DNA of 43,253 bases, taken from positions 1 through 43,253 of IMG/VR virus record IMGVR_UViG_2778261009_000005; one strand, 5' to 3'. Made by a program: the position numbers and the translations under genes. Shown here piece after piece: positions 1,241-19,585 of this stretch (positions are counted from its first letter, which is position 1; each line of letters begins with the position of its first letter). The stretch comes from a virus. Lineage: Duplodnaviria > Heunggongvirae > Uroviricota > Caudoviricetes. A model generated the notes under the pieces. It did not search any database. It was not told where the DNA came from and saw nothing but the letters and a program-made list of their open reading frames with translations.

Positions 1241-2113
<873 letters not shown>

Positions 2114-2260: not shown

Positions 2261-2467
2261 TTTTACCGCGCTTTTCCGCGTTTTGCTGGCTGGTGGGCGC
2301 TCTTTCTGTTTAGCGATACGGCGGTCGATAGAATCCCGCATTTTCTGATATTGCGATTCTCGCCAAGCGGGGTCAGCCAACTTTTCCCGTTGCCGAGCGA
2401 TCGCTCGTTCTCTGGCTGCCTTCTGCCACTCGCGGCGCTGTTCAAGTTTTTGTTCGATTGTTTTCAT
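2252..2467 (-). pseudogene. ref: ref-like gene (P1 Ref, RecA-dependent nuclease), N-terminal ~69 codons; 3' part displaced by the transposon
   Basis: Highly basic N-terminus MKTIEQKLEQRREWQKAARERAIARQREK... (about 21 K/R in 70 aa); the reading frame runs into the Tn IR at 2260 and the last codons are transposon-derived; lies downstream of cre. Confidence 0.45.
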
Positions 2468-2472
2468 ATGGC

Positions 2473-2499
2473 AAAAAAAAAGGCGGCCTAATGGCCGCC
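2473..2499 (-). terminator. Intrinsic terminator (minus strand) immediately upstream of the ref-like start codon
   Basis: Minus strand reads GGCGGCC-ATTA-GGCCGCC followed by T9. Confidence 0.6.
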
Positions 2500-2566
2500 A
2501 ATGATGTCAAGGAGTTAAGTAATGGCAACGTCTTCGTAGTTGACAAAAACTGCGGCTTAATTATAG

Positions 2567-2583
2567 CAATCAATTAGAGCAAT
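2567..2583 (-). promoter_or_regulatory. C1 operator-like site with adjacent extended -10 (TGcTATAAT, minus strand at 2560-2568)
   Basis: Minus strand ATTGCTCTAATTGATTG, 14/17 match to the P1 operator consensus ATTGCTCTAATAAATTT. Confidence 0.55.
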
Positions 2584-2690
2584 GGTAGATATTTTGTTAA
2601 TCGCGAATCACATTTTTTCACTTCAGTACCTGTGTGCTATACTCCTTCTTGATTGATTGGATGCGGAATACAAACCCGCTCTTTTGTGCA

Positions 2691-2717
2691 GCCTGGCTCC
2701 TTGCCAGGCTTTTTTTA
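2691..2717 (+). terminator. Intrinsic terminator (plus strand)
   Basis: GCCTGG-ctccttg-CCAGGC followed by T7 (tttttttattt). Confidence 0.6.
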
Positions 2718-3026
2718 TTTCATCATGGAAGCTGTTAACGCTTTGGATCTTGCTGAACTGATTGAAAGGGCATTGTTTACCTTACCCAGGAGTTCGCCAA
2801 ATTCCACCATCACTCTAGTAAGCCCGCGCCGCGCTTCCTCCTCCGTTGCATTCATCACAAAATGTTCAGCACTCCGCATGCTTTTAACGGGGAACGCAAC
2901 AGATATCGAGTCGATATCAGGCATCCTATCGCTCAACTTTACGGTGACAATGACAGATGGTGACTGAATTTGAGAGCTTACAGACAGCACCACATATTTT
3001 CCGTCTATTTTGAAATCCTTCCGCAT
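2715..3026 (-). CDS. Hypothetical protein between cre and ref (cra position)
   Basis: 103-aa ORF preceded by a C1-operator-like site; no recognisable motif. Confidence 0.3.
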   Translation of the reverse strand: MRKDFKIDGKYVVLSVSSQIQSPSVIVTVKLSDRMPDIDSISVAFPVKSMRSAEHFVMNATEEEARRGLTRVMVEFGELLGKVNNALSISSARSKALTASMMK

Positions 3027-3042
3027 GTGTCACCATAAATAT

Positions 3043-3059
3043 CAAATAATTAGAGCAAT
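3043..3059 (-). promoter_or_regulatory. C1 operator-like site
   Basis: Minus strand ATTGCTCTAATTATTTG, 14/17 match to consensus. Confidence 0.5.
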
Positions 3060-3076
3060 CAGTTGCAAATAAACGG

Positions 3077-4108
3077 CTAATCGCCATCTTCCAGCAGGCG
3101 CACCATTGCCCCCGTTTCACTATCCAGGTTACGAATGTAGTTCATGACAATATTTACGTTGGTCCAGCCACCAGCTTGCATGATCTCCGGTATTGAAACT
3201 CCGGCGCGGGCCATATCTCGCGCGGCTCCGACACGGGCACTGTGTCCAGACCAGGCCAGGTATCTCTGACCAGAGTCATCCTTAGCGCCGTAAATCAATC
3301 GATGAGTTGCTTCAAAAATCCCTTCCAGGGCGCGAGTTGATAGCTGGCTGGTAGCAGATGGCGCGGCAACACCATTTTTTCTGACACGGCAAAACAAGTA
3401 GTTATTCGGATCATCAGCCACACCAGAGACAGAAATCCATCGCTCGACCAGTTTAGTTACCCCCAGGCTAAGTGCCTTCTCTACACCTGCGGTGCTAACC
3501 AGCGTTTTCGTTCTGCCAATATGGATTAACATTCTCCCACCGTCAGTACGTGAGATATCTTTAACCCTGATCCTGGCAATTTCGGCTATACGTAACAGGG
3601 TGTTATAAGCAATCCCCAGAAATGCCAGATTACGTATATCCTGGCAGCGATCGCTATTTTCCATGAGTGAACGAACCTGGTCGAAATCAGTGCGTTCGAA
3701 CGCCAGTGCCTGTTTTGCACGTTCACCGGCATCAACGTTTTCTTTTCGGATCCGTCGCATGACCAGTGAAACAGCATTACTGTCACTTGGTCGTGGCAGC
3801 CCGGACCGACGATGAAGCATGTTTAGCTGGCCCAAATGTTGCTGGATAGTTTTTACTGCCAGACCGCGCGCCTGAAGATATAGAAGATAATCGCGAACAT
3901 CTTCAGGTTCTGCGGGAAACCATTTCCGGTTATTCAACTTGCACCATGCCGCCCACGACCGGCAAACGGACAGAAGCATTTTCCAGGTATGCTCAGAAAA
4001 CGCCTGGCGATCCCTGAACATGTCCATCAGATTCTTGCGAACCTCATCACTCGTTGCATCGACCGGTAATGCAGGCAAATTTTGGTGTACGGTCAGTAAA
4101 TTGGACAT
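3077..4108 (-). CDS. cre: Cre site-specific recombinase (tyrosine recombinase)
   Basis: 343-aa ORF MSNLLTVHQNLPALPVDATSDEVRKNLMDMFRDRQAFSEHTWKMLLSVCRSWAAWCKLNNRKWFPAEPEDVRDYLLYLQARGLAVKTIQQHLGQLNMLHRRSGLPRPSDSNAVSLVMRRIRKENVDAGERAKQALAFERTDFDQVRSLMENSDRCQDIRNLAFLGIAYNTLLRIAEIARIRVKDISRTDGGRMLIHIGRTKTLVSTAGVEKALSLGVTKLVERWISVSGVADDPNNYLFCRVRKNGVAAPSATSQLSTRALEGIFEATHRLIYGAKDDSGQRYLAWSGHSARVGAARDMARAGVSIPEIMQAGGWTNVNIVMNYIRNLDSETGAMVRLLEDGD matches P1 Cre as remembered. Confidence 0.97.
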   Translation of the reverse strand: MSNLLTVHQNLPALPVDATSDEVRKNLMDMFRDRQAFSEHTWKMLLSVCRSWAAWCKLNNRKWFPAEPEDVRDYLLYLQARGLAVKTIQQHLGQLNMLHRRSGLPRPSDSNAVSLVMRRIRKENVDAGERAKQALAFERTDFDQVRSLMENSDRCQDIRNLAFLGIAYNTLLRIAEIARIRVKDISRTDGGRMLIHIGRTKTLVSTAGVEKALSLGVTKLVERWISVSGVADDPNNYLFCRVRKNGVAAPSATSQLSTRALEGIFEATHRLIYGAKDDSGQRYLAWSGHSARVGAARDMARAGVSIPEIMQAGGWTNVNIVMNYIRNLDSETGAMVRLLEDGD

Positions 4109-4430
4109 TTAACACTCAGATAATGGTTTTAAGTAAAGTGTACAGGATCGGCTCTGCCTTTACCTGTTTATGGTTCTCGTCATAGAAACGCCAGCGACCG
4201 CGCGTGCGTTCTATTTTTTCTTCACCGCGCGATAATGACAGTTGGCAACTATCACGATCAAACCCTTTTGCCCGCCAGTAACCACGGTTTTTCTCAAGCT
4301 CAAGATGAGTGGACACTTTAGCAGTTGAATATCCCATTTTTCACCTCTGATTGATTGGTGGTGCTAAGTGCGCTACGCGAAATCTGTAGGACTAACACCG
4401 CCAATTTTTCACAGATTTTACGTAGCGCAA

Positions 4431-4510
4431 CCTTGATCAAATGATCAAGTGATCACTATTTGACCTGCCAAGGTATTGAACTGTATGGATTTACAGGTAA
4501 ATTGATCATA
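4431..4510. promoter_or_regulatory. Cluster of four GATC (Dam) sites in the cre upstream region
   Basis: GATC at about 4435, 4443, 4451 and 4504; P1 cre promoters are known to be Dam-sensitive. Confidence 0.45.
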
Positions 4511-4526
4511 TTCAATAACCCTTAAT

Positions 4527-4560
4527 ATAACTTCGTATAATGAACGCTATACGAAGTTAT
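4527..4560. other. lox recombination site (loxP arms, variant spacer)
   Basis: ATAACTTCGTATA-ATGAACGC-TATACGAAGTTAT: perfect 13-bp loxP arms, 8-bp spacer differing at 2 positions from canonical ATGTATGC. Confidence 0.85.
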
Positions 4561-4603
4561 TAGGTCTGAAGAGGAGTTTACGTCCAGCTGCGTATAAAAA
4601 TCA

Positions 4604-4620
4604 AGAATTATTAGAGCAAT
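4604..4620 (-). promoter_or_regulatory. C1 operator-like site (Op99-region)
   Basis: Minus strand ATTGCTCTAATAATTCT, 15/17 match. Confidence 0.6.
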
Positions 4621-4680
4621 AAATTTTGAGAGAAAAATCCCACTCCACCAGCCAAAAACTGGATTGTTTTTCATAGTTGT

Positions 4681-4703
4681 TTGACAATTGCTCTAATAAA
4701 TTA
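4681..4703 (+). promoter_or_regulatory. Promoter -35 TTGACA followed by C1 operator-like site (Op99-region), rightward toward coi/c1
   Basis: TTGACA at 4681-4686 followed by ATTGCTCTAATAAATTA (16/17) at 4687-4703. Confidence 0.6.
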
Positions 4704-4941
4704 TAGTTTTGCCGCCGTTTCGTAATACAACTTTGGATTCACTATTTAATGTGTCTTCAGCGTTGTAGAGCGGCTCAGAAGGAAATGAGCAAACAGGGAA
4801 ACCTTATACAACGGCATTACAGCTATGCATTGCTCATCTTACACACAGCGCAATGTTGTAGGATTACCCCAGCATGGATCATGGGTGAAACAGTAGGTCA
4901 GAGCTTCAGGCTCTGTGTTGTCAATACAGTGAGGCATAATT

Positions 4942-5151
4942 ATGGCTTTCATTCCACCAACCATCGACGACGTTAGACATTGCTCTAACGCTTTATCTGT
5001 AGACCCCGCCGAAACCGACGCTGCCCGCGCCATTGCTGAACACTACTCAAAGATATCCAATCAGGAGTACCGCATCACCCAAGACGACCTGGATGATCTC
5101 ACTGACACAATCGAATATCTCATGGCCACTAACCAGCCAGACTCACAATAA
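4942..5151 (+). CDS. coi: Coi, C1 inactivator
   Basis: 69-aa ORF MAFIPPTIDDVRHCSNALSV... directly upstream of c1, with a GAGG ribosome-binding site. Confidence 0.85.
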   Translation: MAFIPPTIDDVRHCSNALSVDPAETDAARAIAEHYSKISNQEYRITQDDLDDLTDTIEYLMATNQPDSQ

Positions 5152-5167
5152 ATGCACTAATAAATCT
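5151..5167 (+). promoter_or_regulatory. C1 operator-like site upstream of c1 (Op99a position)
   Basis: AATGCACTAATAAATCT, 14/17 match; followed by TATAAT at 5189-5194. Confidence 0.5.
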
Positions 5168-5261
5168 ATTATTTTCGTTGGATCCTTCTATAATGGTGGC
5201 CAACAACTCCCAGTGTAATCCGCTGTGAGTTGTTGGCCATGTCAATTCTGGAGGAGGATCA

Positions 5262-6113
5262 ATGATAAATTATGTCTACGGCGAACAACTGTACCAGGAG
5301 TTCGTCAGCTTCAGGGATCTCTTTCTAAAAAAAGCTGTTGCACGCGCCCAACACGTTGATGCCGCCAGCGACGGTCGTCCTGTTCGCCCGGTTGTCGTTC
5401 TGCCGTTCAAAGAAACGGACAGCATTCAGGCTGAAATTGATAAATGGACTTTAATGGCGCGGGAACTGGAACAGTACCCAGACCTCAATATCCCAAAGAC
5501 TATTTTATATCCAGTGCCTAACATCCTTCGCGGTGTGCGTAAGGTTACAACTTATCAGACAGAAGCTGTGAACAGCGTCAACATGACCGCTGGCCGCATT
5601 ATTCATCTGATTGATAAGGACATTCGCATCCAGAAAAGCGCGGGGATCAATGAGCACAGTGCGAAATACATAGAGAACCTGGAAGCAACAAAAGAGCTAA
5701 TGAAGCAGTACCCGGAGGATGAAAAATTCCGTATGCGTGTACACGGCTTTAGCGAAACAATGTTGCGCGTCCATTACATTTCCAGTAGCCCTAACTACAA
5801 TGATGGTAAATCAGTTAGTTACCATGTGCCGCTGTGTGGTGTGTTTATCTGCGATGAAACTCTCCGTGATGGAATCATCATCAACGGTGAATTCGAGAAA
5901 GCAAAATTTAGCCTTTATGACTCTATAGAACCGATCATCTGCGACCGCTGGCCGCAGGCAAAAATATATCGCCTGGCAGATATTGAAAATGTAAAAAAAC
6001 AAATTGCCATCACTCGCGAAGAGAAAAAGGTCAAATCAGCCGCATCAGTTACGCGCAGCCGTAAAACTAAGAAGGGGCAGCCAGTAAACAGCAACCCCGA
6101 AAGCGCGCAATAG
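5262..6113 (+). CDS. c1: C1 repressor of lysis (immC)
   Basis: 283-aa ORF MINYVYGEQLYQEFVSFRDLFLKKAVARAQ... matches P1 C1 as remembered; GGAGGAGG ribosome-binding site. Confidence 0.93.
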   Translation: MINYVYGEQLYQEFVSFRDLFLKKAVARAQHVDAASDGRPVRPVVVLPFKETDSIQAEIDKWTLMARELEQYPDLNIPKTILYPVPNILRGVRKVTTYQTEAVNSVNMTAGRIIHLIDKDIRIQKSAGINEHSAKYIENLEATKELMKQYPEDEKFRMRVHGFSETMLRVHYISSSPNYNDGKSVSYHVPLCGVFICDETLRDGIIINGEFEKAKFSLYDSIEPIICDRWPQAKIYRLADIENVKKQIAITREEKKVKSAASVTRSRKTKKGQPVNSNPESAQ

Positions 6114-6138
6114 TTTTCCATCCGGCATGGTCAAATTG

Positions 6139-7623
6139 TTATTCATTAAGCCATGCCAGAGCTTCATCAACCTGCGCTTCGTCTTCGACGCTAAGCACTT
6201 CATCTTGGGGAACATAGTTCGCCAACATAGCGAAACAATATGTATCCCAATGGTCCGGTGAGTGCAGGTTGAGTTTTTTCTTCATATCTTCCTTTGACAT
6301 CACCTTCCATTGACCTGCGGAATTTATCCCTACCGGTATCTTTGATGCTTCCTCTATAGTCGCAGCCCCCTTATCAAGCCGCATACGCCCTGATTTTACA
6401 GCTTCTGCCGCCTGAATATTCGCGAAAGCGCGCATATCGAAATAAAGGCTTTTATCTTCACGGCTGTGCATCTTTTTACCCCAGCGGATACGCTGGACGG
6501 TAATGCCATAGCGTTCGTACATTAGATCAGCCGTCGATTTCCCCAAGCCATCGCCATCAATAGCTATGGTTATGTTCGGGAACCGTTCTGGGTTACATTC
6601 TGCGAAAATCTTGGCGGCTAACTGCGTTTCTGTAACGTCTGTGTATTCCAGCATACGATAGTTGATTACACGGCGTTTATTTCGCTGGCCGGACACCATC
6701 ATGATATTAATAACGGACTTATCTCGTCCTGTGCCACCAGCAACGTCAACACATGCAACCCAGCCCCATCCTTTGGCAATCTTGACCTTTCGCCGCGTCG
6801 CCCGCTCAACCTCATCACGACCAAGAAGAAAGCCATCTTGAGATTTGGGAAATTCACCACGTACTTTGATCATGTACATGGGGTTATCACGACCGCCATA
6901 CTCCGCAAGTTTTGCTCGTATAAATTTTGCATCTACAAGCGGAGATTCTTCACTATTCAGTATTATCGCAGTAAACAATCCATCAGGATTTCCCGGGCGA
7001 ATAGCTAGTCTGTGGTGTGAATCGTAGAAATAGCCTGAAGGTCGCGTAGGCTGGGAAAGAAGCAGAATACGGTTATCCTTACCGGTCAGCGCACCTGTTA
7101 TCACACTGAATGCTTTATCACTCACACCCGACGCTTCGTCGATGATATACAAGAGATGATCGGCGTGTTCACCAGCCAACGCCTCCTCATTTCCGGGGCG
7201 ACAGGACTTTATCAATATTGTCCAAACACCCTTGCCAGTCACCTCAAAAAAAGACGTTTCTGTAAGAATGAAATACTTCGACAACCACGGGAATCTGCTA
7301 ACAGCAGTAGCCCAATTGCTCTTTATGTATTTGAAAATACCATCAAGGACTTGCTGTCTTTTGTTAGCGACCAGAATGACGCGAGCGCCGGGGAAAAACA
7401 TGATGAAGAGTATTGCAATGATACTCGTCATATCCGATTTACCAGTACCATGGCCGGAGGTCACACTTGTCCAACTGCCGTCCTGCTGCGTGGACTCAAT
7501 GATCTCATCCTGCTGCCAGGTTGGTGTCTTCCCAAACAACACATCAGCGGCCGCAATCCAGTCATAACGATATAGCGCCACAAGCTCGCGCCAACGTGGG
7601 TCCGTTACGCAACTTCTGGCCAT
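6139..7623 (-). CDS. pacB: PacB, pacase/terminase large subunit
   Basis: 494-aa ORF immediately downstream of pacA; P1 gene order. Confidence 0.9.
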
Positions 7624-8816
7624 TAATCATCATCCCCGTACAGTTTGCGGGTAACTTCTTCGTCTTCCTCCTCGTCTTCGTCCAGATCCTGTTCAAGCCA
7701 TGCTTCGTTTGATATGCCTTCCGCATCGACATCACCATAACCACCTGTATCGACGATATCGGCAATTTCTTCTCTACGATGCTCAATCCACAATGCCGCA
7801 TCAGCGCGGCGGCTGGCGGCCCGTTCTCGCGCGATTTTATCCAGATCTTCAAGTGATGGAGCGCCAGATGCTGTTTGGTTTTCCTCATCATCGGTATTGG
7901 TCTTAGGAGCACGCAGATCGGCTTTGATTTGCTCCAGCATCAGGGGCGGCACTTTTCCTCCATGCGCCTCGATGAATTCAGCCGCTTCCAGCACTGACCA
8001 GTTATTTTCACGCTTTCGTTCGTATGCCAGCTTAACAATGCCAGCTTGCCCCATAGACAAAGCGTGCTTTTCCGCCTCCCGGCTTTCTTTTCGATAGTTA
8101 TTCCGGATGCTGTAAATGGTGTTGATCAGGCTGCTTATCTGCGCGGAACAGCTGTTTAGCATGCTCGCGATACGGTATTCAGGCGGAGTACCTTCATCAT
8201 CGTCTTTTTGCTGATCGCGCATTTCCTGCACCAGGCGAATACACGTATCCCTGGCGTTCTCCAGCATAAGGAGATGAGAAAGAGACTTTTCCAGAAGAGT
8301 GGTTTCCAGAACATCGGCCCCGGACCGACGCAACATAGCGCGCGCGGCCTTCCGCGCTTCAACGTTATCTATCAGGTAATCGCCAGCTTCGAATTCAAAG
8401 CGTTCACCATCATCATCCAGGGTGTCGCGTTCCAGGCGATCACGTAAGGTCCGGTGGGCGCGGGTGATCACGTCATGATCATCTGAACGATCATTTATGC
8501 GCTTATTTTGGCGCTTCGCATTATCGACTGCGGCACTGACAACGGCATTAACTCTTTGTTTTTCATCCATTTCAGCCACAACGTGATCACCTGCACGTTG
8601 ATCATTAGCGTGATCAATGATCATGCTTTTTAGTGGTTTCCTGACAGGCTTATTTGGCTTACGGCTGTCCGCTGTTCCGGTGTCTTCTTTGAATGCACGG
8701 AGATAACGACGTGCGGTGTTTGGGTTGAGATTAAACTCGGCGGCATATTGTGCGATGGTGTAACCACCATCTCGCGCCAGGCGAGCAAAATTCTTCTTGT
8801 GATCGTCCCAGGTCAC
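7623..8816 (-). CDS. pacA: PacA, pacase/terminase small subunit
   Basis: 397-aa ORF (GTG start with AAAGGAAG ribosome-binding site) containing the pac site; acidic C-terminus. Confidence 0.9.
8461..8625. other. pac packaging site (seven GATC-containing hexamers in clusters of 3 and 4)
   Basis: TGATCA/TGATCG-type elements at about 8467, 8478, 8490 and 8586, 8601, 8613, 8620 inside pacA, as described for the P1 pac site. Confidence 0.75.
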
Positions 8817-8902
8817 TTATGCTTCCTTTCGTATAAAACTCTTTTTGACGCGAGGGTAACGAAAGTCACATGTCAAAAGGCCCGGAACGGGCAAGCAATC
8901 AA

Positions 8903-9355
8903 TCAGATACGTGCGGATGTGGCATTACCGTAATGACGGTGCTGACGGACCACCTTATTGAAAAATTGACGCGCCATTACCCAAGGCTGGTGCTCCCGGC
9001 GTTCCTTTTCGTCCTGCGTCATATAGAGTTCGTTCTGGAGTTTTTCATCAAACCGGCGCGGAGCGCGACTGCGGCGAAAGAATTCAGGATTCAGAGAGTG
9101 GATCTGAAATCTACGTGGGCGTGTACTGTCATCAATCAAAACAGACGAATACTTAGACACAGCGATAGCCTTTAAGCGCAGATAAACATCGCGCTTATCG
9201 ACATCCAGATGCGGGTATTCCTTTTCAAGAATTGCTGCGAGTTCTTTCGCTGATAGAAGAGATTTAGTGCGGATCATGTAATCCGCAATCTCGTACGATG
9301 TTATTCGTGAGTGATTTATTTCCATGAAGTGGCGTCCCTGCCAGTTAAGTAACAT
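8903..9355 (-). CDS. lpa: Lpa, late promoter activator
   Basis: 150-aa ORF upstream of pacA with a C1 operator in its promoter region. Confidence 0.8.
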   Translation of the reverse strand: MLLNWQGRHFMEINHSRITSYEIADYMIRTKSLLSAKELAAILEKEYPHLDVDKRDVYLRLKAIAVSKYSSVLIDDSTRPRRFQIHSLNPEFFRRSRAPRRFDEKLQNELYMTQDEKERREHQPWVMARQFFNKVVRQHRHYGNATSARI

Positions 9356-9425
9356 CCTGTCACCTACTGATTAGCCCATGTCAACTAATCAACGTCGAAT
9401 ATAATACCCTCGATTAAAGAAATAG

Positions 9426-9442
9426 CAATACATTAGAGCAAT
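9426..9442 (-). promoter_or_regulatory. C1 operator-like site upstream of lpa
   Basis: Minus strand ATTGCTCTAATGTATTG, 14/17 match, between the pdcB stop and lpa start. Confidence 0.55.
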
Positions 9443-9443
9443 T

Positions 9444-10487
9444 TTATCTAACACTCGACGAATGACTTGTGATAGCGCCAACTCCAAGCGCGTAATCAAA
9501 GAACAATCGTTGATGCATCGCCAGCCTACCGTGCGTCTTCTCCCAATTATCGCGGTCACGCTCAATATCACGCTGGCATGACTGGCACAGAGGAATAGCA
9601 TAAATGTCATGCGCGCATAATCGACTATGACGAACTATATAAGGCGTAATGTGAGCGCCAGCTCCCGCAGCTCCACAGCCACAGCATGGACGGGAAGCCA
9701 CAAAGTCCATGTACTCGGGCAATTTTAGCGATTGAAGTTTTGGTATTTTGAAATGCGCCATACCTGGGTCGGAGTCAACATCCACAGGGCATACTTTTGC
9801 ACGCATCGGCGCGGCGCGTTCTTCCATCATCTGAACATATGCTGTAGCGCGATCGTCATACGGGCGAATATCCGCCTCTTTCAGAGGTCCGCTATCCTGC
9901 GGAATAGCCTTCATCTTATTTATTGATATGCGGCAGACTTCTTCCGGCATCAGGTGCATCATGTTGCGCATGAAAGCCCACCAGCACAGCTCCTGAATAC
10001 TTAAATCATGGCTATTTGAAAGGCCCATTTCCTGACGGGCGACATCCAGTATCCAGTTAACGCGATTATTGTGCAGCGTTTCTTTCAGCTCATTAAAACC
10101 ACGCATCCGATAATGGTGATCGTGATGCCAGCACAACAACACCGCGCTATTGTCTCGTTCAGCGTGGACAATATGGTTGTCACACCAACTACGATCTGCG
10201 GCCTGGCATTGCCCCTCTTTCCTGCGCAACCACGCCACCAGCGCGTCAATTCCACCAATACGGCGAAACAGTTCATCGCTGTTAAAAAACGGCTGCAACG
10301 CCTCATTTGTTGCCATGGTTTGCTCGGTAACAACGAGGCCGTCTTCCATGTGCTCGATTAACTCACGCGGCACCGGCTCCATAATAAATTTACGGCCAGC
10401 CTCCACCAGCTTTCTGACCTCCTGATCCACTTTGAACGTGGCGAGGCCAAGCTCTTTCTGTACAAAGGGAGTAATTACGGCTTTCAC
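9444..10487 (-). CDS. pdcB: PdcB-position protein with Cys-rich zinc-binding motifs
   Basis: 347-aa ORF between pdcA and lpa; [12 protein letters not shown] and CxxC motifs. Confidence 0.55.
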
Positions 10488-10514
10488 ATCACACCTTTAA
10501 TCACTGATTGGGCT

Positions 10515-10694
10515 TTATCTGCTGCCCGGCATTCTCTGTTTAAGCACAACCATTTCCTGACGGCATAACACAGCAATAGCAGTCCTGGCTCCAATTTGCT
10601 TACCAACCAGGTATTGCTTTACCTCGCGGCGACTCACGCCATCAAGAAGCATCTTTAACGCTTCACGGGACAATTTGTTGTATTTGCGTGCCAT
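10515..10694 (-). CDS. pdcA: PdcA-position small protein
   Basis: 59-aa ORF from ATG at 10692-10694, 4 nt after the doc stop. Confidence 0.45.
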   Translation of the reverse strand: MARKYNKLSREALKMLLDGVSRREVKQYLVGKQIGARTAIAVLCRQEMVVLKQRMPGSR

Positions 10695-10698
10695 TAAT

Positions 10699-11079
10699 CT
10701 ACTCCGCAGAACCATACAATCTACGTAACGTGTCGGCGACAGAAGATACAGATATCTCGCCAGTCGCAGCGCCTACAGTAAGGTCTGCCAGTTCAGGTGA
10801 ATCAAATACCTGCACCCCGTTACGGCGTAGAAATAGCAGCGCGCTGTTTAGCGCGGTACGCTTATTGGCATCATTGAATATATGCCCTCTCGCTGTAGCC
10901 ACCAGGTAGGTGGCGGAGACTTCGAAAAGGTCGGTGATCTCTTCGTAGGCAACTCTGGCCTGAACTCTCCCGATAATGGCCTCTGCCCTACCCGGATCTG
11001 ACATTCCCGGCAGGCCGCCGTAGCGGCTTATATTCGCATCATGAAGCGCAATAAGTTCTTCCGGTGATATATGCCTCAT
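10699..11079 (-). CDS. doc: Doc toxin (Fic-fold kinase) of the phd-doc addiction module
   Basis: 126-aa [28 protein letters not shown]...; start overlaps the phd stop. Confidence 0.93.
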
Positions 11080-11300
11080 TATCGGTTAACCAGTTCCTTG
11101 TTGGTGGAGTCCAGGGTGTCAAACAGGGATGCAAATTCAGCATCCAGCGCCGCTTTTTTGTAGGCTTCGAAAGTAGCCTTGCTGACAATTACTGCTGGCT
11201 CACGACCTCTGCGGGTGATTTCAACCTCTTCCCCGGCTTCAACATTGTTGAGCACTTCAGAAAGGTTGCCGCGCGCGGTACGGAAGTTAATGGATTGCAT
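11079..11300 (-). CDS. phd: Phd antitoxin
   Basis: 73-aa [76 protein letters not shown]. Confidence 0.93.
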
Positions 11301-11304
11301 AAAC

Positions 11305-11345
11305 ACCTCGTGTACTCGTTATGTGTACACAATTATAAACTTCAC
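11305..11345 (-). promoter_or_regulatory. phd-doc promoter/operator
   Basis: Minus strand TATAAT followed by palindromic GTGTACAC-type Phd-binding repeats directly upstream of the phd ATG. Confidence 0.6.
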
Positions 11346-11476
11346 AGGCATAAAGCACCAGCACTTTGCGGCTTAACAAACCTCTAGGCAGGTCATTCGT
11401 AGCCTAATGTCCGAACTGCTAAAGCATCCAAGTTGCTGTAGAATCACCGCCAATTACATAAGCCTGAAATAAGTGG

Positions 11477-13039
11477 ATGAAAATGACAAGTATTCAACAA
11501 CGTGCAGAGCTTCATCGTCAAATCTGGCAAATTGCTAACGATGTCAGGGGTTCGGTCGATGGATGGGATTTTAAGCAATACGTTCTGGGCGCACTTTTCT
11601 ACCGTTTTATCAGCGAAAATTTTTCCAGTTATATTGAAGCCGGTGATGACAGTATCTGTTATGCGAAACTGGATGACAGCGTAATTACTGATGACATTAA
11701 AGACGATGCCATCAAAACTAAAGGCTACTTCATCTACCCCAGTCAGCTTTTCTGCAACGTAGCTGCGAAAGCAAATACCAATGACAGACTGAACGCAGAT
11801 TTAAACAGCATCTTCGTTGCTATCGAAAGTTCTGCTTACGGCTACCCTTCAGAAGCAGACATCAAAGGTTTGTTTGCTGATTTCGATACCACCAGTAACC
11901 GCCTGGGTAACACCGTTAAAGATAAAAATGCCCGCCTGGCTGCGGTTCTGAAAGGGGTTGAAGGGTTAAAACTTGGTGACTTCAACGAACATCAGATTGA
12001 CCTGTTCGGTGATGCCTATGAGTTCCTGATTTCTAACTATGCGGCAAATGCCGGTAAGTCAGGCGGTGAGTTCTTTACACCGCAGCACGTCTCCAAGCTG
12101 ATTGCACAACTGGCTATGCACGGGCAGACCAACGTTAACAAAATCTACGACCCGGCAGCGGGTTCCGGCTCACTGTTGTTGCAGGCTAAAAAGCAGTTTG
12201 ATAACCATATCATCGAAGAAGGCTTTTTTGGTCAGGAAATCAACCATACAACCTATAACCTGGCACGTATGAACATGTTTTTGCACAACATCAACTACGA
12301 CAAGTTTGATATCAAGCTGGGTAATACACTGACTGAGCCACACTTCAGAGATGAAAAACCGTTTGATGCCATCGTTTCTAACCCGCCGTATTCGGTGAAA
12401 TGGATTGGCAGCGATGACCCGACGCTGATTAACGATGAACGTTTTGCCCCGGCTGGCGTCCTGGCCCCCAAATCCAAAGCTGACTTTGCGTTTGTACTAC
12501 ATGCGCTGAACTATCTTTCGGCCAAAGGTCGTGCTGCGATTGTCTGCTTCCCGGGTATTTTTTACCGTGGCGGCGCGGAGCAGAAAATCCGTCAGTATCT
12601 GGTCGATAATAACTATGTCGAAACCGTGATTTCACTGGCACCGAACCTGTTCTTTGGCACCACTATTGCTGTAAACATTCTGGTGCTGTCTAAACATAAA
12701 ACGGATACCAAAGTTCAGTTTATTGATGCCAGCGAACTGTTCAAAAAAGAAACCAACAACAATATCCTGACCGATGCCCATATCGAACAGATTATGCAGG
12801 TATTTGCCAGCAAGGAAGATGTTGCTCATCTGGCGAAATCTGTTGCGTTTGAGACTGTTGTCGCGAATGACTATAACCTGTCGGTGAGCAGCTATGTGGA
12901 AGCGAAAGATAACCGCGAAATTATCGATATCGGTGAGCTGAATGCAGAGCTGAAAACCACGGTCAGCAAAATCGACCAGTTGCGTAAAGATATTGATGCA
13001 ATTGTGGCTGAAATTGAAGGCTGCGAGGTGCAGAAATGA
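11477..13039 (+). CDS. hsdM: Type I restriction-modification methyltransferase subunit HsdM (N6-adenine)
   Basis: 520-aa [28 protein letters not shown]... with AdoMet motif and NPPY catalytic motif (VSNPPYS). Confidence 0.92.
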
Positions 13040-14241
13040 GCGAGATGAGTTATCTGGAAAAATTGCTGGATGGGGTTGAGGTTGAGTGGAAGACACTTGG
13101 GCAAACTTGCAAAATTGAAACAGGAAAGCTTAATGCGAATGCGGCTGTTGATGATGGAGAGTATATGTTCTTCACGACAGCCAAAGAGACAAGCAAAATT
13201 GATAAATTCCGCTGGGATACAGAGGCATTGCTGATTGCAGGCAATGCGAATGTTGGTGAGGTGAAGCATTACATCGGCAAGTTTGAGGCTTATCAGCGCA
13301 CCTATGTTCTGACAAATTTCGACGAAAATGTAAGTGTTAGATTTTTGTATTTTGTGCTTAGCCATAGCCTGAAGAAATATCTCGAGGAAAGAACAAATAG
13401 CGCGGCAATGACATATATCGTGCTATCAACCTTAGAGAATTTCCCTATCCCCATCCCCTGCCCGGATAATCCGGAAAAATCCCTTGCCATCCAGTCTGAA
13501 ATCGTTCGGATTCTGGATAAATTTACTGCACTTACCGCTGAGCTTACCGCTGAGCTTAACATGCGTAAAAAACAGTACAACTACTATCGCGACCAGTTGT
13601 TGAGTTTTAAAGATGGTGAGGTTGAGTGGAAGACTTTGGGGGAAATTGGAGATTTTACATATGGATATGCAGCCAAAGCCATGGATTCAGGAGATGCCCG
13701 TTTCGTGAGAATTACTGACATAAATAAAGACGGGAAGCTATCGAAAGAAAACCCAATGTACGTTGAATTAAATGAGGAAAATGAGAAATATACCTTAGAC
13801 AAAAATGATTTACTCATGGCAAGAACTGGGGCAACCTTTGGTAAAACAATGATTTTTGAAGAAGATTATCCAGCAGTATACGCTGGTTTTTTAATAAAGT
13901 TGAACCTAAATAAAACGATTATTAATGCCAAATATTACTGGCACTTTGCACAAAGTGATTTTTTTTGGGAACAGGCTAATAAATTAGTATCTGGTGGTGG
14001 GCAACCACAGTTTAATGCTAATGCACTGAAACAAGTCAGAGTACCTATTCCATACCCATCTCACCCTCAAAAATCTTTAGACGAACAGGGGCGTATTGTG
14101 GATATTCTGGATAAGTTTGATGCAATCACAGCTTCCATCACCGAAGGTCTCCCGCGTGAAATCGAGTTGCGCCAGAAACAATACGAGTACTATCGTGATT
14201 TACTGCTCAGTTTCCCAAAACCTGAAACTGTCAGTAATTAA
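13036..14241 (+). CDS. hsdS: Type I specificity subunit HsdS (Type IC, EcoR124-like)
   Basis: 401-aa ORF with two target-recognition domains each opening GEVEWKTLG, central TAELTAEL repeat and two conserved ILDKF...YYRD..LLSF regions; start overlaps the hsdM stop. Confidence 0.9.
13531..13557 (+). repeat. Tandem 12-bp repeat (ACCGCTGAGCTT x2, coding TAEL-TAEL) in hsdS central conserved region
   Basis: CTT-ACCGCTGAGCTT-ACCGCTGAGCTT-AAC read directly; the same repeat exists in EcoR124I/II hsdS, where copy number sets the recognition-site spacer length. Confidence 0.8.
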
Positions 14242-14362
14242 TTGACCATTATTACAGACCGGATCACCTTAACATCCGGTCTGTATATAGACTATTTTTT
14301 ACACGCCGGAAAGCACCCTTAACGCCCTTCCGGCCCTTGCCAGACGGCATAAAGGATGCGCT

Positions 14363-17300
14363 ATGACTCATCAGACACACACTATTGCTGAATCCAATAA
14401 CTTTATCGTCCTTGATAAGTACATCAACGCTGAGCCAACAGGCGACAGCTACCAGAGCGAATCGGACCTGGAACGTGAACTGATTCAGGACCTGCGGAAT
14501 CAGGGCTATGAATTTATATCCGTAAAATCTCAGTCGGCTATGCTGTCCAATGTTCGGGAACAGCTTCAGAGCCTCAATGGTGTGGTGTTTAATGACAGCG
14601 AGTGGCGGCGTTTCACGGAGCAGTATCTGGACAACCCGAGCGATGGCATTCTGGATAAGACCCGTAAAATCCATATCGACTATATTTGCGACTTTATTTT
14701 TGATGACGAGCGACTTGAGAACATCTATTTGATAGATAAAAAGAATCTCATGCGCAATAAGGTGCAGATTATCCAGCAGTTTGAACAGACGGGTTCTCAT
14801 GCTAACCGTTATGACGTCACGATCCTGGTTAATGGTTTACCGCTGGTGCAAATCGAACTAAAAAAACGCGGGGTGGCGATTCGTGAGGCTTTCAACCAGA
14901 TACATCGTTACAGTAAAGAGAGTTTTAACAGCGAAAATTCCCTGTTTAAGTATCTGCAACTGTTTGTCATTTCTAACGGCACCGATACCCGTTATTTTGC
15001 CAACACGACAAAGCGCGATAAAAACAGTTTTGACTTCACCATGAATTGGGCGAAATCAGACAACACGCTGATTAAAGACCTCAAAGACTTTACCGCTACC
15101 TTTTTCCAGAAACATACTCTGCTGAATGTTCTGGTGAACTACAGCGTTTTTGACAGTAGTCAGACGCTACTGGTGATGCGACCGTACCAGATTGCCGCCA
15201 CCGAGCGCATTCTGTGGAAAATTAAGAGTTCCTTTACAGCGAAGAACTGGTCAAAACCGGAAAGCGGTGGGTATATCTGGCACACTACCGGTTCTGGTAA
15301 AACCCTCACCAGCTTTAAAGCCGCGCGTCTGGCAACAGAGCTGGACTTTATTGATAAAGTCTTCTTTGTGGTCGACAGGAAAGACCTCGATTACCAGACC
15401 ATGAAGGAATATCAGCGTTTTTCGCCAGACAGCGTCAACGGCTCGGAAAATACCGCAGGCCTTAAACGAAATCTGGATAAGGACGATAACAAAATTATCG
15501 TCACTACTATTCAGAAACTTAATAACCTGATGAAAGCAGAAAGCGACCTGCCTGTATATAATCAGCAAGTGGTGTTTATATTTGATGAATGCCACCGCAG
15601 CCAGTTTGGAGAAGCGCAGAAAAACCTGAAGAAGAAATTCAAACGCTATTATCAGTTTGGTTTTACCGGCACACCTATTTTCCCGGAAAACGCCTTAGGC
15701 TCAGAAACGACCGCCAGCGTATTTGGTCGTGAATTGCATTCGTATGTAATTACCGATGCGATTCGTGATGAAAAAGTGCTCAAATTCAAGGTGGACTATA
15801 ACGATGTGCGGCCACAGTTTAAGTCTTTAGAGACAGAAACTGACGAGAAAAAACTAAGTGCGGCTGAAAATCAGCAGGCGTTTCTTCATCCCATGCGTAT
15901 ACAGGAAATTACGCAATATATTCTGAATAACTTCCGCCAGAAGACGCACCGTACTTTCCCTGGCGCAAAAGGTTTTAATGCTATGTTGGCAGTGAGCAGC
16001 GTGGATGCTGCAAAAGCCTATTACGCGGCGTTTAAACGGTTACAAGAGGAAGCCGCTAATAAATCTGCAACTTATAAACCGCTGCGTGTTGCGACAATCT
16101 TCTCCTTTGCCGCTAATGAAGAACAAAATGCCATTGGTGAAATTTCCGATGAAACTTTTGATACCAGCGCAATGGACAGCAGTGCTAAAGAGTTTCTTGA
16201 CGCTGCAATTCGTGAGTATAACAGCTATTTTAAAACTAACTTCAGCACCGACGGTAACGGTTTTCAGAACTACTATCGCGATTTAGCCCAACGGGTTAAA
16301 AATCAGGATATCGATCTGTTAATTGTCGTGGGGATGTTTTTAACTGGCTTCGATGCTCCAACATTGAACACGCTATTCGTCGATAAAAACCTGCGTTTTC
16401 ACGGCTTGATGCAGGCATTTTCCCGCACCAACCGTATTTATGATGCAACTAAAACCTTCGGTAATATCGTCACTTTCCGGGATCTGGAACGCTCAACTAT
16501 TGATGCCATAACGCTGTTTGGTGACAAAAACACCAAAAATGTGGTTTTAGAAAAGAGTTATGCAGAGTATATGGAAGGCTTTACTGATGCTGCCACTGGT
16601 GAAGCTAAGCGCGGCTTTATGGCAGTAGTTTCAGAACTGGAACAACGGTTCCCTGACCCTGCCAGTATTGAAAGTGAAAAAGAGAAGAAAGACTTCGTTA
16701 AACTGTTTGGTGAATACCTGCGTGCCGAGAACATCCTGCAAAACTATGATGAATTTGCCACGCTGAAAGCCCTGCAACAAATCGATCTTAGCGATCCTGT
16801 TGCGGTAGAAAAATTCAAAGCAGAACATTATGTGGATGATGAAAAGTTCGCTGAATTGCAAACGATTCGTCTCCCTGCTGAACGCAAGATTCAGGATTAT
16901 CGTTCTGCCTATAACGATATTCGTGACTGGCAGCGCCGCGAGAAAGAAGCTGATAAAAAAGAAAAATCAACCACTGACTGGGATGACGTGGTTTTTGAGG
17001 TCGATTTGCTGAAGTCTCAGGAAATAAACCTGGATTATATCCTTGGACTGATTTTCGAACACAACAGACAAAATAAAGGCAAGGGCGAAATGATCGAAGA
17101 GGTCAAACGCTTAATTCGTTCAAGCCTGGGGAACCGGGCGAAAGAGGGCCTGGTGGTCGATTTTATTCAGCAAACGAACCTGGATGATTTACCGGATAAA
17201 GCCAGCATCATTGACGCATTCTTTACGTTTGCTCAACGCGAACAGCAACGTGAAGCAGAAGCATTGATAAAAGAAGAAAATCTCAATGAAGATGCAGCAA

Positions 17301-17479
17301 AACGCTATATTCGCACGTCTTTAAAACGCGAATATGCCACCGAAAATGGCACAGAATTAAACGAAACATTACCAAAACTTAGTCCATTGAATCCGCAATA
17401 TAAAACGAAAAAACAGGCAGTTTTCCAGAAAATCGTCTCGTTTATTGAGAAGTTTAAAGGCGTAGGCGGAAAAATATAG
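14363..17479 (+). CDS. hsdR: Type I restriction endonuclease/translocase subunit HsdR
   Basis: 1038-aa ORF with helicase motifs TGSGKT and DECH and an N-terminal nuclease region; own ribosome-binding site AAAGGA. Confidence 0.92.
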
Positions 17480-17558
17480 CCCAATTCGTGTTTTTCTTGC
17501 GGGTTCTTAATTAAACCCGCAAGAGACCGTGGGGTTCCAAATGGCTAATATACTCCCC

Positions 17559-17645
17559 TTATCCATGAGCGACGATGCCGCCAAAAGTGATAGAGAACAA
17601 CCAGAAATAGATCGCGGCCATAATGATTTTGAATGCCGTGTTCAT
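17559..17645 (-). CDS. Candidate 28-aa hydrophobic peptide
   Basis: MNTAFKIIMAAIYFWLFSITFGGIVAHG with AGGAG 9 nt upstream of the ATG; below the ORF-track size cutoff; unverified. Confidence 0.3.
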   Translation of the reverse strand: MNTAFKIIMAAIYFWLFSITFGGIVAHG

Positions 17646-17673
17646 ATTTTCAGCTCCTGTGATTGATTGGATA

Positions 17674-17704
17674 CATGCCGCGCCTTGCGGCATGTTTTTA
17701 TTTT
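17674..17704 (+). terminator. Intrinsic terminator (plus strand) downstream of hsdR
   Basis: CATGCCGC-gcctt-GCGGCATG followed by TTTTTATTTT. Confidence 0.65.
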
Positions 17705-17727: not shown

Positions 17728-17744
17728 AGATTTATTAGAGCAAT
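17728..17744 (-). promoter_or_regulatory. C1 operator-like site
   Basis: Minus strand ATTGCTCTAATAAATCT, 16/17 match. Confidence 0.6.
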
Positions 17745-18250
17745 TATTGTTGATGAAGAAGCGTGTTTTCATACTCCATGACCATTAACGTAAGCACGCC
17801 GTGACGCCTGAAAACACGCGCCACTTCAATCTTATCTTCCAGCGCGAACGCAATTTTGCTTAGACCAATTTTCTTAAGGAGATCAATCTTTGCTGGACCG
17901 TCATTTCTGTCATCGGTGGCGGGACGCATAGATAGCAAAGGCTCTGCCCCGTTTGTTACGTACTTCCGCAGCCAGGCTCGTGTTTTATCCCTTGCGATCT
18001 CACAGCGCCCGGTTACAAACCAGACCGTGTAAACGTTAAATAACTGGCGCACCATATCAATAACTGGAGTGATGGGAGTATCGGTGTCACAGGCGAGATT
18101 AAACTCGTTCCAGTCCTTTGTTAATGCACCTTTACCTGGTGGCGGAAGCAAATGCAGTCTGTCTTCAGTTGCCTCTGATATTGTTCCATCAATATCAACT
18201 ATGACGATATACGGACGTTCCTGGTGTGCGTGTTTATTGAAAATACTCAA
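17744..18250 (-). CDS. HAD-superfamily phosphatase-like protein
   Basis: 168-aa ORF with DxDGT motif (IVIVDIDGTIS) typical of HAD/PNK-type phosphatases; TTG start with GAGGAGG ribosome-binding site. Confidence 0.5.
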   Translation of the reverse strand: MSIFNKHAHQERPYIVIVDIDGTISEATEDRLHLLPPPGKGALTKDWNEFNLACDTDTPITPVIDMVRQLFNVYTVWFVTGRCEIARDKTRAWLRKYVTNGAEPLLSMRPATDDRNDGPAKIDLLKKIGLSKIAFALEDKIEVARVFRRHGVLTLMVMEYENTLLHQQ

Positions 18251-18322: not shown

Positions 18323-19585
18323 TCAGCGAACGTAAATAGTGCCGCCGTTCTCTTTTTCCCATGCATTGCTACGTGCATAGCAAACATCGAGAAGTCTTCT
18401 TGCCGCTGTTTCCTCTAAACCCAATTCGACAACCAACTGCTCATGACGGCGGGTAACCACATCAAACAGGGTATGCAGCCCTTTAGCTGCCAGATCATCA
18501 ATAAATTCCGGTTCGAACGGCAGCTCTGCATCTGCCAACATAACCTCTTGCGCCCACTCGACACGGCGGACCAGTTCCGGGCGGCGGCTTTCCATCTCTT
18601 TACAGATCAATTCATGGAAGAACTCTACCCAACCTTCCGGCTGGAACTCGCGGAAAATGGCCAGCGGCTGGAAGTTTGGCATCAACCATTCGTTGATTCG
18701 GATATCAATGGCATAGCCCATGTCGCAGCAGAACTGATAAGCAAAGTCCAGCTTAGAAACGATATAAGGACGCTCGTTATTGAACTCTTTAGGCGATGAG
18801 ATCCCATAAGCCAGGAGGCGCGGGAAGAAGGAGATTTGCCCTAACGTCGGATGAAGTTTGCTTGCAGGGAAACGGCGCTCAGTAATGCCATACATTTCCT
18901 TCTTGAGCGTCGCAAATTTGGCATTCTCATTAACCAGCGCGGTAACCTCTGCTTTTTTATTAGCAAATGCCACGCGCGCTTCGCTTGCATCTTTAATAGT
19001 TTTTTTGAGCTGTTGGTTAAGGTCGGCGACCTGCTTACGCAGTTCCTGTCGCTCGCTTTTAGCTTTGTTATAGCGTTTCTCAAGGTTAAAAGGATCAAGT
19101 TTCATGATCTCTTTATATTGAGATTTTAGCGTTGAAATCTGTGAGTTCCGCAGTTCAACCATCGCGGTCATTTCATTGAGTTTTGTTTCCAGCTCAATGC
19201 TTATACGTTCGGCATTATCAGCACGCTGGTTGGCGTCATGCGTCGCATCGTCGATCGCGTCCTGTTGCTGGCGTTTCAAATGTTCAATTTGCAGCTGAAG
19301 CTCTTCAATTTCTTTACCCTTCAGACCGAGATCCAACTGCATATTTTCAGCTGCATCTACCAGGGAGTTATGGCTATCAGCTTCTGCGTTATAAACATCA
19401 ATAAGCTGTGCGTGAAGCATCTCCGCTGACTGAACCGCATTATCAAAAAAACGTGCTGTGAGGTCATCACAACTAACGCGGCGTTGCGCGGCCCGGATGT
19501 TCTGGATAATGGCCGGGATACCGGCATTCAGGACATCAGGGATAGATACATTTTCGATTGATTGGTTTTGTGCTGAAGTGCTCAT
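18323..19585 (-). CDS. Hypothetical protein, coiled-coil N-terminal half plus C-terminal globular domain
   Basis: 420-aa ORF; heptad-rich region about residues 80-230; no nucleotide-binding motif recognised; start 1 nt after the stop of the upstream 72-aa ORF. Confidence 0.55.
   Translation of the reverse strand: MSTSAQNQSIENVSIPDVLNAGIPAIIQNIRAAQRRVSCDDLTARFFDNAVQSAEMLHAQLIDVYNAEADSHNSLVDAAENMQLDLGLKGKEIEELQLQIEHLKRQQQDAIDDATHDANQRADNAERISIELETKLNEMTAMVELRNSQISTLKSQYKEIMKLDPFNLEKRYNKAKSERQELRKQVADLNQQLKKTIKDASEARVAFANKKAEVTALVNENAKFATLKKEMYGITERRFPASKLHPTLGQISFFPRLLAYGISSPKEFNNERPYIVSKLDFAYQFCCDMGYAIDIRINEWLMPNFQPLAIFREFQPEGWVEFFHELICKEMESRRPELVRRVEWAQEVMLADAELPFEPEFIDDLAAKGLHTLFDVVTRRHEQLVVELGLEETAARRLLDVCYARSNAWEKENGGTIYVR

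Follow-up and report, generated by a model that had tools for sequence, protein, structure and literature searches.

The DNA considered here raises the question of why one and the same 11-nucleotide (nt) motif recurs in several regulatory regions of a P1-like phage-plasmid. The stretch analyzed, hereafter the window, comprises 43,253 nt of the IMG/VR virus record IMGVR_UViG_2778261009_000005, falls into the P1/P7 group (Punavirus) with 95-99% identity in megablast comparisons and is oriented opposite to the P1 reference, such that P1 nt 2 corresponds to window position 4542. The motif, TGATTGATTGG, occurs in exact form on the plus strand at 2650-2660, 4348-4358 and 17660-17670 (copies 1, 2 and 3) and with one mismatch, as CGATTGATTGG, at 19555-19565. 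The exact copies are all intergenic, being situated between c8 and ref, upstream of cra, and between the end of hsdR and pap, respectively; they lie within 17 kb of one another and are all present in P1 itself. Read on the minus strand they give CCAATCAATCA followed by agAAGGAG, GAGGTG and cAGGAG, respectively. We propose, with a probability that we put at roughly 60%, that copy 1 represents the 5' end of a trans-acting small RNA with a 5'-terminal seed and that the other copies are target sites of this RNA on mRNAs.

A preliminary description of this DNA had listed the three exact positions and the variant, all of which were confirmed, and had set them against an expectation of 0.02 occurrences. 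That figure is valid only for an 11-mer chosen beforehand. In the window, 29 different 11-mers are present at least three times on the same strand, and 41 when either strand is considered, many of them being C1 operators and RepA iterons, while about 20 further triples of the same size have no explanation. Dinucleotide shuffles of the window contain on average 1.7 such 11-mers on the same strand and 6.6 on either strand, and at least one same-strand triple appears in 78% of the shuffles. The bare triple was therefore rejected as statistical evidence, and the case rests on context and conservation. When up to one mismatch is allowed, the motif has six copies against 1.22 expected, a number reached in none of 100 shuffles. 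Chance recurrence of a low-complexity 11-mer, with apparent conservation stemming from close kinship, would agree with the triples expected in a window of this size and with the roughly 20 others that lack an explanation. It is nevertheless very improbable, as the core is kept in five lineages in which the flanks show about 57% column identity or are beyond alignment, and as it is always found at the same functional position. Judged from this conservation across lineages, and not from the triple count, we take the motif to be real.

Copy 1, with the c8 stop codon on one side and the ref promoters on the other, heads a compact unit on the plus strand, in the order extended -10, GAUUGAUUG, stem-loop, short spacer ending in GCA, and terminator with U-tail (Table 1). 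The extended -10 that the preliminary description had noted before copy 1 was recovered in a promoter scan and is separated from GATTGATTG by 7 nt in the window; the terminator abuts the c8 stop codon (2715-2717, minus strand). The predicted RNA of 67 nt folds with a minimum free energy of -23.2 kcal/mol (z = -3.7) and leaves nt 1-8 unpaired. No annotation covers the locus in P1, P7 or phiW39, and Rfam, searched with the whole window at the gathering threshold and with 2400-2900 at E values up to 10, returned no family for the predicted RNA, only tRNAs and weak generic terminator-type hits. The earlier statement that the motif is not a recognized P1 site thus agrees with the annotations, Rfam and the literature checked. 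A small peptide encoded within the predicted RNA was considered and rejected: the ATG at 2661 is not accompanied by a Shine-Dalgarno (SD) sequence and is absent in other lineages.

Within the P1 group, sampled as 699 plasmids, 18 phage records and about 90 distinct IMG/VR contigs, the copy-1 region was found in the 699 plasmids and the 18 phage records. There is hardly any variation from the -10 through the terminator, and the spacer just upstream varies freely. The 9-nt core of the motif is invariant in 154 of 154 P1-group locus records, a number in which many of the approximately 90 contigs are counted twice, as well as in the more distant L107, L108, L109 and L186 introduced below, while the two flanking bases vary. 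The few substitutions observed in the terminator stem of the P1 group give G-U pairs on the plus strand and would be A-C mismatches on the other strand. In plasmid CP057815.1 a match to the first 44 nt only of the copy-1 query was obtained; the small RNA gene seems to be interrupted or lost there, possibly constituting a natural knockout.

Cre searches combined with DNA patterns located four lineages beyond the P1 group: a Pantoea contig (L019/L107/L188), L108/L184 with L251, L109/L187/L247 with L185/L249, and L186/L250. A metagenome scan for more lineages yielded a single contig, which is of the L108 type. Cre of the Pantoea element (L019/L107) is 63-65% identical to that of the window and Cre of L109 about 80%, whereas L108 Cre was compared with Pantoea Cre only (65%), these identities covering all lineages except L186; for C8, identity across lineages ranges from 37 to 50%. 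In each lineage the unit is found just beyond the c8 homologue, on the opposite strand and at the equivalent locus. Everywhere TGnTATA(C/G)T is followed, after 6-7 nt, by GATTGATTG; next come a stem-loop whose sequence is unrelated between lineages, a spacer with GCA at its end and a terminator of 8 bp with U-tract. The search of other P1-like genomes suggested at the outset shows the copy-1 unit to be conserved in five lineages. All 55 cells of the terminator alignment, which comprises seven sequences, contain standard pairs; two pairs exhibit compensatory double changes and three have G-U variants that pair on this strand only. Folds of the other lineages have the same architecture (z from -2.95 to -4.3), nt 1-7 of the predicted RNA are unpaired in all of them, and outside the P1 group folding is more stable for the sense than for the antisense strand, e.g., with -27.2 vs. 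-13.5 kcal/mol. Behind the AAGGAG of copy 1 a start codon is missing, and this hexamer is not conserved, being replaced by AAGTCAC in the Pantoea element and by GCGAACGAG in L108; copy 1 is therefore not a translation start, not even a degenerate one.

Taken together, a terminator with U-tail and an unstructured conserved seed followed by a variable remainder are features of the Hfq-type class of 5'-seed RNAs. The extended -10, at a set distance from the seed in five lineages, would provide the RNA with a promoter of its own. The build of seed, variable stem-loop, spacer and terminator is the usual one for a trans-acting base-pairing RNA of the Hfq type.

At copy 2 (P1 nt 186-196) the motif is placed between P3cre and the cra SD as given in the P1 annotation. 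In an alignment of the leaders from five lineages, mean column identity amounts to 57% and only four islands are invariant, i.e., a GATC cluster, two inverted-repeat arms overlapping the P3cre -10, and CAATCAATCA. Four lineages have other genes inserted ahead of cra. In these, the motif has kept its place in the leader, 10-19 nt ahead of the start codon of the gene that is now first, and none is present at cra. In the predicted fold of the cra leader only the first four bases of the site are paired. Neither Cra and C8 nor the leader-proximal genes of the other lineages could be assigned to a family in Pfam or NCBIfam. A separate observation in the same leader is the inverted repeat GCGCTACGTAAAATCTG ... 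CAGATTTCGCGTAGCGC (4412-4428 and 4370-4386, minus strand), whose left arm overlaps the P3cre -10 and whose arms, not the spacer, are kept in five lineages. It could be an operator for some regulator or an RNA stem in transcripts from P4cre, which lies upstream.

Copy 3 (P1 about 84372-84382) is found downstream of the C1-controlled P1/P2pmgT and directly 5' of AGGAG and the ATG of a small hydrophobic open reading frame (ORF) of 28 amino acids (aa). The copy is invariant in five P1-group sequences, and one plasmid carries an in-frame 12-nt deletion in the ORF. A homologue with 58% identity over 24 aa occupies the equivalent position in L247 (46 aa, 8972-9111, minus strand), where the ORF is preceded by UCAAUCAAUCA-uc-GGAG and, further upstream, by a C1 operator and a 5' hairpin that differs entirely in sequence. 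Folds of the small-ORF leaders predict that the motif site is unpaired. Pfam and NCBIfam searches with the 28-aa ORF gave no match at E values up to 1 and pointed to no described toxin family; the product might be a lytic-programme peptide that is active on membranes. IncF plasmids with the hsdR flank in common were considered as evidence and set aside as uninformative, an IS1 insertion cutting just before the start of the small ORF.

In the preliminary description, SD sequences beside each copy and plus-strand terminators after copies 1 and 3 were taken as compatible with short plus-strand RNAs running from the motif to the terminator. Hairpins with T-runs are indeed present at 2690-2710 (followed by T7) and 17673-17695 (followed by T5ATTTT), and SD-like sequences accompany every copy on the minus strand; real translation starts, however, exist at copies 2 and 3 only. 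The short plus-strand RNA is supported for copy 1 by the unit conserved in five lineages, but not for the other two: pattern scans revealed neither a promoter nor a terminator on the plus strand at copy 2 and no plus-strand promoter at copy 3. The hairpin of L247 at the place of copy 3 has no T-run on the opposite strand and is not a terminator there, and the copy-3 terminator is therefore a feature of the P1 group. If each copy nevertheless made its own cis-antisense RNA, copy 3 and the small ORF would resemble a type I toxin-antitoxin system. The terminators after copies 1 and 3 and the hydrophobic ORF facing copy 3 are in line with this, and in hsd-bearing elements read-through from hsdR would give an antisense transcript ending at 17704. 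The missing promoters at copies 2 and 3 and the missing terminator at copy 2 argue against such an arrangement, as do the L247 hairpin, the lack of an ORF opposite copy 1 and the lack of a toxin family for the small ORF in NCBIfam and Pfam, and we consider it distinctly unlikely. Because it is the complement beside the SD on the mRNA strand that is conserved, copies 2 and 3 are more plausibly sites targeted in trans by the copy-1 RNA than sources of separate cis-antisense RNAs.

Two further sites belong to this picture. The one-mismatch copy in pmgS is a possible third target; the codons AAC CAA TCA ATC are identical in L247 while neighbouring codons differ, PmgS being 69% identical. In L108 and L251 an extra copy of the motif, lacking in P1, abuts the ref start codon. 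Complementary sites in translation-initiation regions thus occur in the cre-operon leader of five lineages, at the small ORF and in pmgS of two lineages each, and at ref in one.

The notion of a shared translational control element, also raised in the preliminary description, comes close to the reading of copies 2 and 3 as conserved mRNA sites that is favoured here. Taken further, the motif could be a cis element of the mRNA, i.e., an enhancer of translation rich in C and A, a standby site for ribosomes or a place where an RNA-binding protein attaches; it would then act independently of any small RNA, with the copy-1 unit being unrelated or a decoy. Copies 2 and 3 and their homologues, always 10-19 nt ahead of a start codon and predicted to be single-stranded, suit an element of this kind, which would also be compatible with a small RNA, as small RNAs are known to target enhancer elements. 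We regard it as rather unlikely, since copy 1 is at no translation start in any lineage, yet the exact complement heads a promoter-terminator unit, since the pmgS copy lies inside a coding region and since lineage-specific extensions match the cognate RNA. A DNA site for a phage or host protein, e.g., a regulator encoded by cra or c8, would find some backing in the fact that GATTGATTG is a direct repeat of GATT and in the position of all exact copies in regulatory intergenic DNA within 17 kb. The conserved sites, however, are always sense-complementary to the local mRNA, their spacing is constrained with respect to start codons and not with respect to promoters, and one conserved copy occupies synonymous positions in pmgS. 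Nor is there any likeness to the C1 operator: ATTGCTCTAATAAATTT and the motif do not match, and the annotated Oref (~2566-2582) and OpmgT (~17730-17746) are located elsewhere. A protein-binding DNA site thus appears highly improbable.

For the preferred reading, in which the copy-1 RNA pairs with the other copies in trans, pairing lengths were determined as contiguous base pairs from RNA nt 1 with the cognate targets. The RNA of the window can form 10 pairs with the cra leader, 15 with the small ORF and 10 with pmgS; the Pantoea RNA forms 10 with its leader, the L108 RNA 12 with the leader and 14 with ref, the L109 RNA 13 with the leader, 13 with pmgS and 11 with the small ORF, and the L186 RNA 11 with the leader. 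On average, 11.9 pairs result with cognate and 10.2 with non-cognate partners. Nucleotides 1-13 of the L109 RNA match both the own leader and the own pmgS. RNA position 11 and target position -2 are combined as U:A in L109 and L186, as C:G in L108 and as A:U at the small ORF of the window, and are mismatched at three other sites. That the lineage-specific extensions would track the cognate RNA is suggestive but modest.

Several points weigh against a seed RNA with dispersed targets, the modest size of this flanking signal being the first. In L186, RNA nt 12 has changed from U to A opposite an A-rich leader that is unchanged, leaving the exchange uncompensated, and in an Escherichia albertii plasmid copy 1 reads TGATTGATTGT with unchanged targets; compensatory changes were looked for in these two natural variants and none were found. 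The seed as such is invariant, hence the core offers no true covariation. The pmgS site (+21 to +31) is outside the classical five-codon window for a block of initiation. An energy-based duplex scan of the whole window with RNA nt 1-18 did not pick out the proposed targets, a result that is uninformative because the GC-rich nt 10-17 dominated the scores. Two additional one-mismatch copies on the minus strand, at 8895-8905 (TGATTGATTGC, over the lpa stop codon) and at 28509-28519 (GGATTGATTGG, inside a glycosyltransferase-like gene), run in the sense of the local mRNA, which precludes them as targets; the E. albertii plasmid retains both, and they are probably due to chance. Moreover, the transcript, its exact 5' end and its binding by Hfq are predictions, and the lineages share ancestry, so that conservation could reflect another function of the same sequence.

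A possible mechanism can be outlined as follows. A stand-alone small RNA gene of about 65-70 nt would lie opposite cre-c8, directly beyond the end of the operon. Its single-stranded 5' seed GAUUGAUUG would pair with CAAUCAAUC on minus-strand mRNAs. This sequence immediately precedes the SD both at the gene that opens the cre operon and at the small ORF, lies early in the pmgS coding region and, in one lineage, also abuts the ref start codon. Pairing over 10-15 bp beside the SD may block binding of the 30S subunit, promote decay, or both, the predicted direction of regulation being repression, as has been described for OmrA/OmrB and further small RNAs of enterobacteria. The RNA gene converges on cre-c8, and the hairpin has no U-tract on the cre strand, such that transcripts reading through from the operon would be complementary to the RNA and might reduce its abundance, which would amount to feedback. 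Most of the proposed targets reside in C1-controlled operons (pmgR-pmgS, small ORF-pmgT, and ref in L108), and the RNA could therefore be a second lock on leaky lytic expression. It is possible that its biological role consists in holding down the cre operon and leaky lytic genes in lysogens.

Table 1. Features of the motif-bearing loci and gene order in the window (positions in nt of the window)
Feature	Position	Strand	Remarks
Predicted sigma-70 promoter	2615-2643	+	-35-like TTTTCA at 2615-2620, 17-nt spacer, extended -10 TGcTATACT at 2635-2643; promoter scan
Motif copy 1, predicted 5' seed GAUUGAUUGG	2650-2660	+	9-nt core 2651-2659; P1 nt 1885-1895
Predicted small RNA, ~67 nt	2651-2717	+	Start from -10 spacing, end from U-tract; P1 nt ~1894 to ~1828, complement
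Stem-loop 1	2659-2682	+	From folds; sequence different in each lineage, stem-loop at that place kept
Intrinsic terminator	2690-2717	+	8-bp stem 2690-2710, U-tract 2711-2717; terminator scan
cra SD and start codon	4335-4347	-	GAGGTG 4342-4347, start codon 4335-4337
Motif copy 2, proposed target	4348-4358	-	cra-cre-c8 leader, mRNA CCAAUCAAUCA, -21 to -11 from cra AUG
28-aa hydrophobic ORF MNTAFKIIMAAIYFWLFSITFGGIVAHG	17559-17645	-	SD AGGAG 17654-17658; unannotated in P1
Motif copy 3, proposed target	17660-17670	-	-25 to -15, small-ORF leader, C1-controlled PpmgT
Hairpin	17673-17695		5'-terminal stem-loop of minus-strand mRNA; with T-run, plus-strand terminator facing hsdR
One-mismatch copy in pmgS, possible third target	19555-19565	-	+21 to +31, codons 7-11, mRNA CCAAUCAAUCG
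Truncated ref, c8, cre, cra	Before lox	-	First in gene order
lox, then imcA-imcB-coi-c1	After cra	+	
pacB, pacA, lpa	After imcA-imcB-coi-c1	-	
Type I hsdMSR cassette	11477-17479	+	Restriction-modification; hsdM 11477-13039, hsdS 13036-14241, hsdR 14363-17479
pap, pmgS, pmgR	After hsd cassette	-	

Some features next to these loci deserve mention in their own right. The Oref variant ATTGCTCTAATTGATTG (2566-2582) ends in ATTGATTG, which equals nt 2-9 of the predicted RNA; it is upstream of both divergent promoters and not expected in either RNA. At 2473-2569 (minus strand), the C1-controlled P2ref, with the operator ATTGCTCTAATTGATTG and a -10 TATAAT, is succeeded by a strong hairpin, GGCGGCCattaGGCCGCC followed by T9, that ends 4 nt ahead of the ref ATG with no SD visible. 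The same arrangement with another stem, GACGGTCttcgGACCGTC followed by T8, precedes ref in L108, and the hairpin may be an attenuator or delimit a second short C1-controlled RNA. Ref itself (2261-2467, minus strand) adjoins a complete blaTEM gene (1253-2113, plus strand; NCBIfam 668 bits vs. a cut-off of 625), its start at 2467 being kept and P1 homology being gone below ~2261; a Tn2/Tn3-type element seems to have inserted into ref, as has been noted for P7. The hsd cassette is placed between the small ORF and the pmgT region, where P1 itself has only an hsd flank of ~220 bp (P1 84263-84482) that is annotated as homologous to the flank of EcoDXXI/R124 hsd loci. Finally, at the start of repA (39737-39747, plus strand; AUGAAUCAAUC) the start codon is immediately followed by 8 nt that match RNA nt 1-8. 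A single 8-mer match at a start codon has a chance of about 0.2 here, and the replication-initiator start of the E. albertii P1-like plasmid shows no equivalent match.

P1 is among the best-studied phages and the source of Cre-lox, and to our knowledge two regulatory RNAs are known from it, C4 and the lytic-replicon antisense RNA. If the proposal holds, the RNA described here would be a third conserved P1 small RNA and would add a post-transcriptional layer to plasmid-prophage maintenance and to the balance between lysis and lysogeny, the predicted targets comprising the cre operon with its role in dimer resolution and cyclization and several lytic genes under C1 control. P1-like phage-plasmids often carry resistance genes, as exemplified by blaTEM in the window, and control of their stability and induction is of practical interest. 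Literature searches on the motif, the RNA sequence and P1 in connection with small RNAs, Hfq or RNA-seq, the coverage of which did not extend to the P1 genome paper (PMC523184), retrieved no description of the RNA.

Among the systems to be compared, C4 from the immI region of P1/P7 is likewise a small RNA encoded by the phage and acts in trans by pairing over short complementary sequences at the icd-ant ribosome-binding region (cited in PMC8201110). It is encoded in immI outside the window, is processed from a longer transcript, uses two loop sequences and controls one operon, whereas the predicted RNA would be transcribed from a promoter of its own and would use a 5'-terminal seed for several targets at scattered loci. 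Hfq-dependent RNAs of prophages, such as IsrK of Gifsy-1 and those from prophages of enterohaemorrhagic Escherichia coli, are also horizontally acquired, short, terminator-ended and seed-based (PMC4825925). They bear no sequence relation to the P1 RNA and act mainly on host or prophage-cargo targets, while the conserved targets proposed for the latter are core phage-plasmid genes.

A resemblance in sequence is offered by OmrA and OmrB of Enterobacterales (RF00079), which, like the predicted RNA, have a 5' seed that is conserved and single-stranded and end in a hairpin with U-tail. Their pairing sites lie close to the SD or the start codon, or early in the coding sequence, as in fepA at +14 to +22 (reviewed in PMC12692685). 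OmrA, which begins with CCCAGAGGTATTGATTGGTGAG according to a primer table (PMC8479692), has AUUGAUUGG in common with the seed of the P1 group and AUUGAUUGGU with those of L109 and L186 (9-10 nt), and CACCAAUCAAU of the cra leader is complementary to OmrA nt 10-20. The shared stretch corresponds to nt 10-19 in OmrA and to nt 2-10 in the predicted RNA. OmrA has 88 nt compared with about 67, the remainder, the promoter and the genomic context are unrelated, and the OmrA-B covariance model gave no hit to the window at the gathering threshold nor to 2400-2900 at E values up to 10. The identity may be due to chance, which we put at a few per cent, and serves as a lead for cross-talk, not as evidence of homology. 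A scheme in which the P1-like RNA jointly controls the cre operon and C1-repressed lytic genes, copies part of the OmrA seed and thereby crosses mutually with EnvZ-OmpR/OmrA targets is speculative and, in our estimation, unlikely; if true, the cra-cre leader could be subject to OmrA, and envelope genes regulated by OmrA could be subject to the phage RNA.

The start of the 28-aa hydrophobic ORF, lastly, is complementary over 13-15 bp to an RNA encoded elsewhere and in this respect resembles type I toxin-antitoxin pairs whose antitoxin RNA is encoded in trans, such as TisB/IstR-1, ShoB/OhsC and ZorO/OrzO. Unlike in these pairs, the predicted RNA gene is 15 kb away, not adjacent, and has other proposed targets. 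The predicted RNA appears to be previously undescribed in P1-like plasmids, and the kind of regulator that it would represent is already known.

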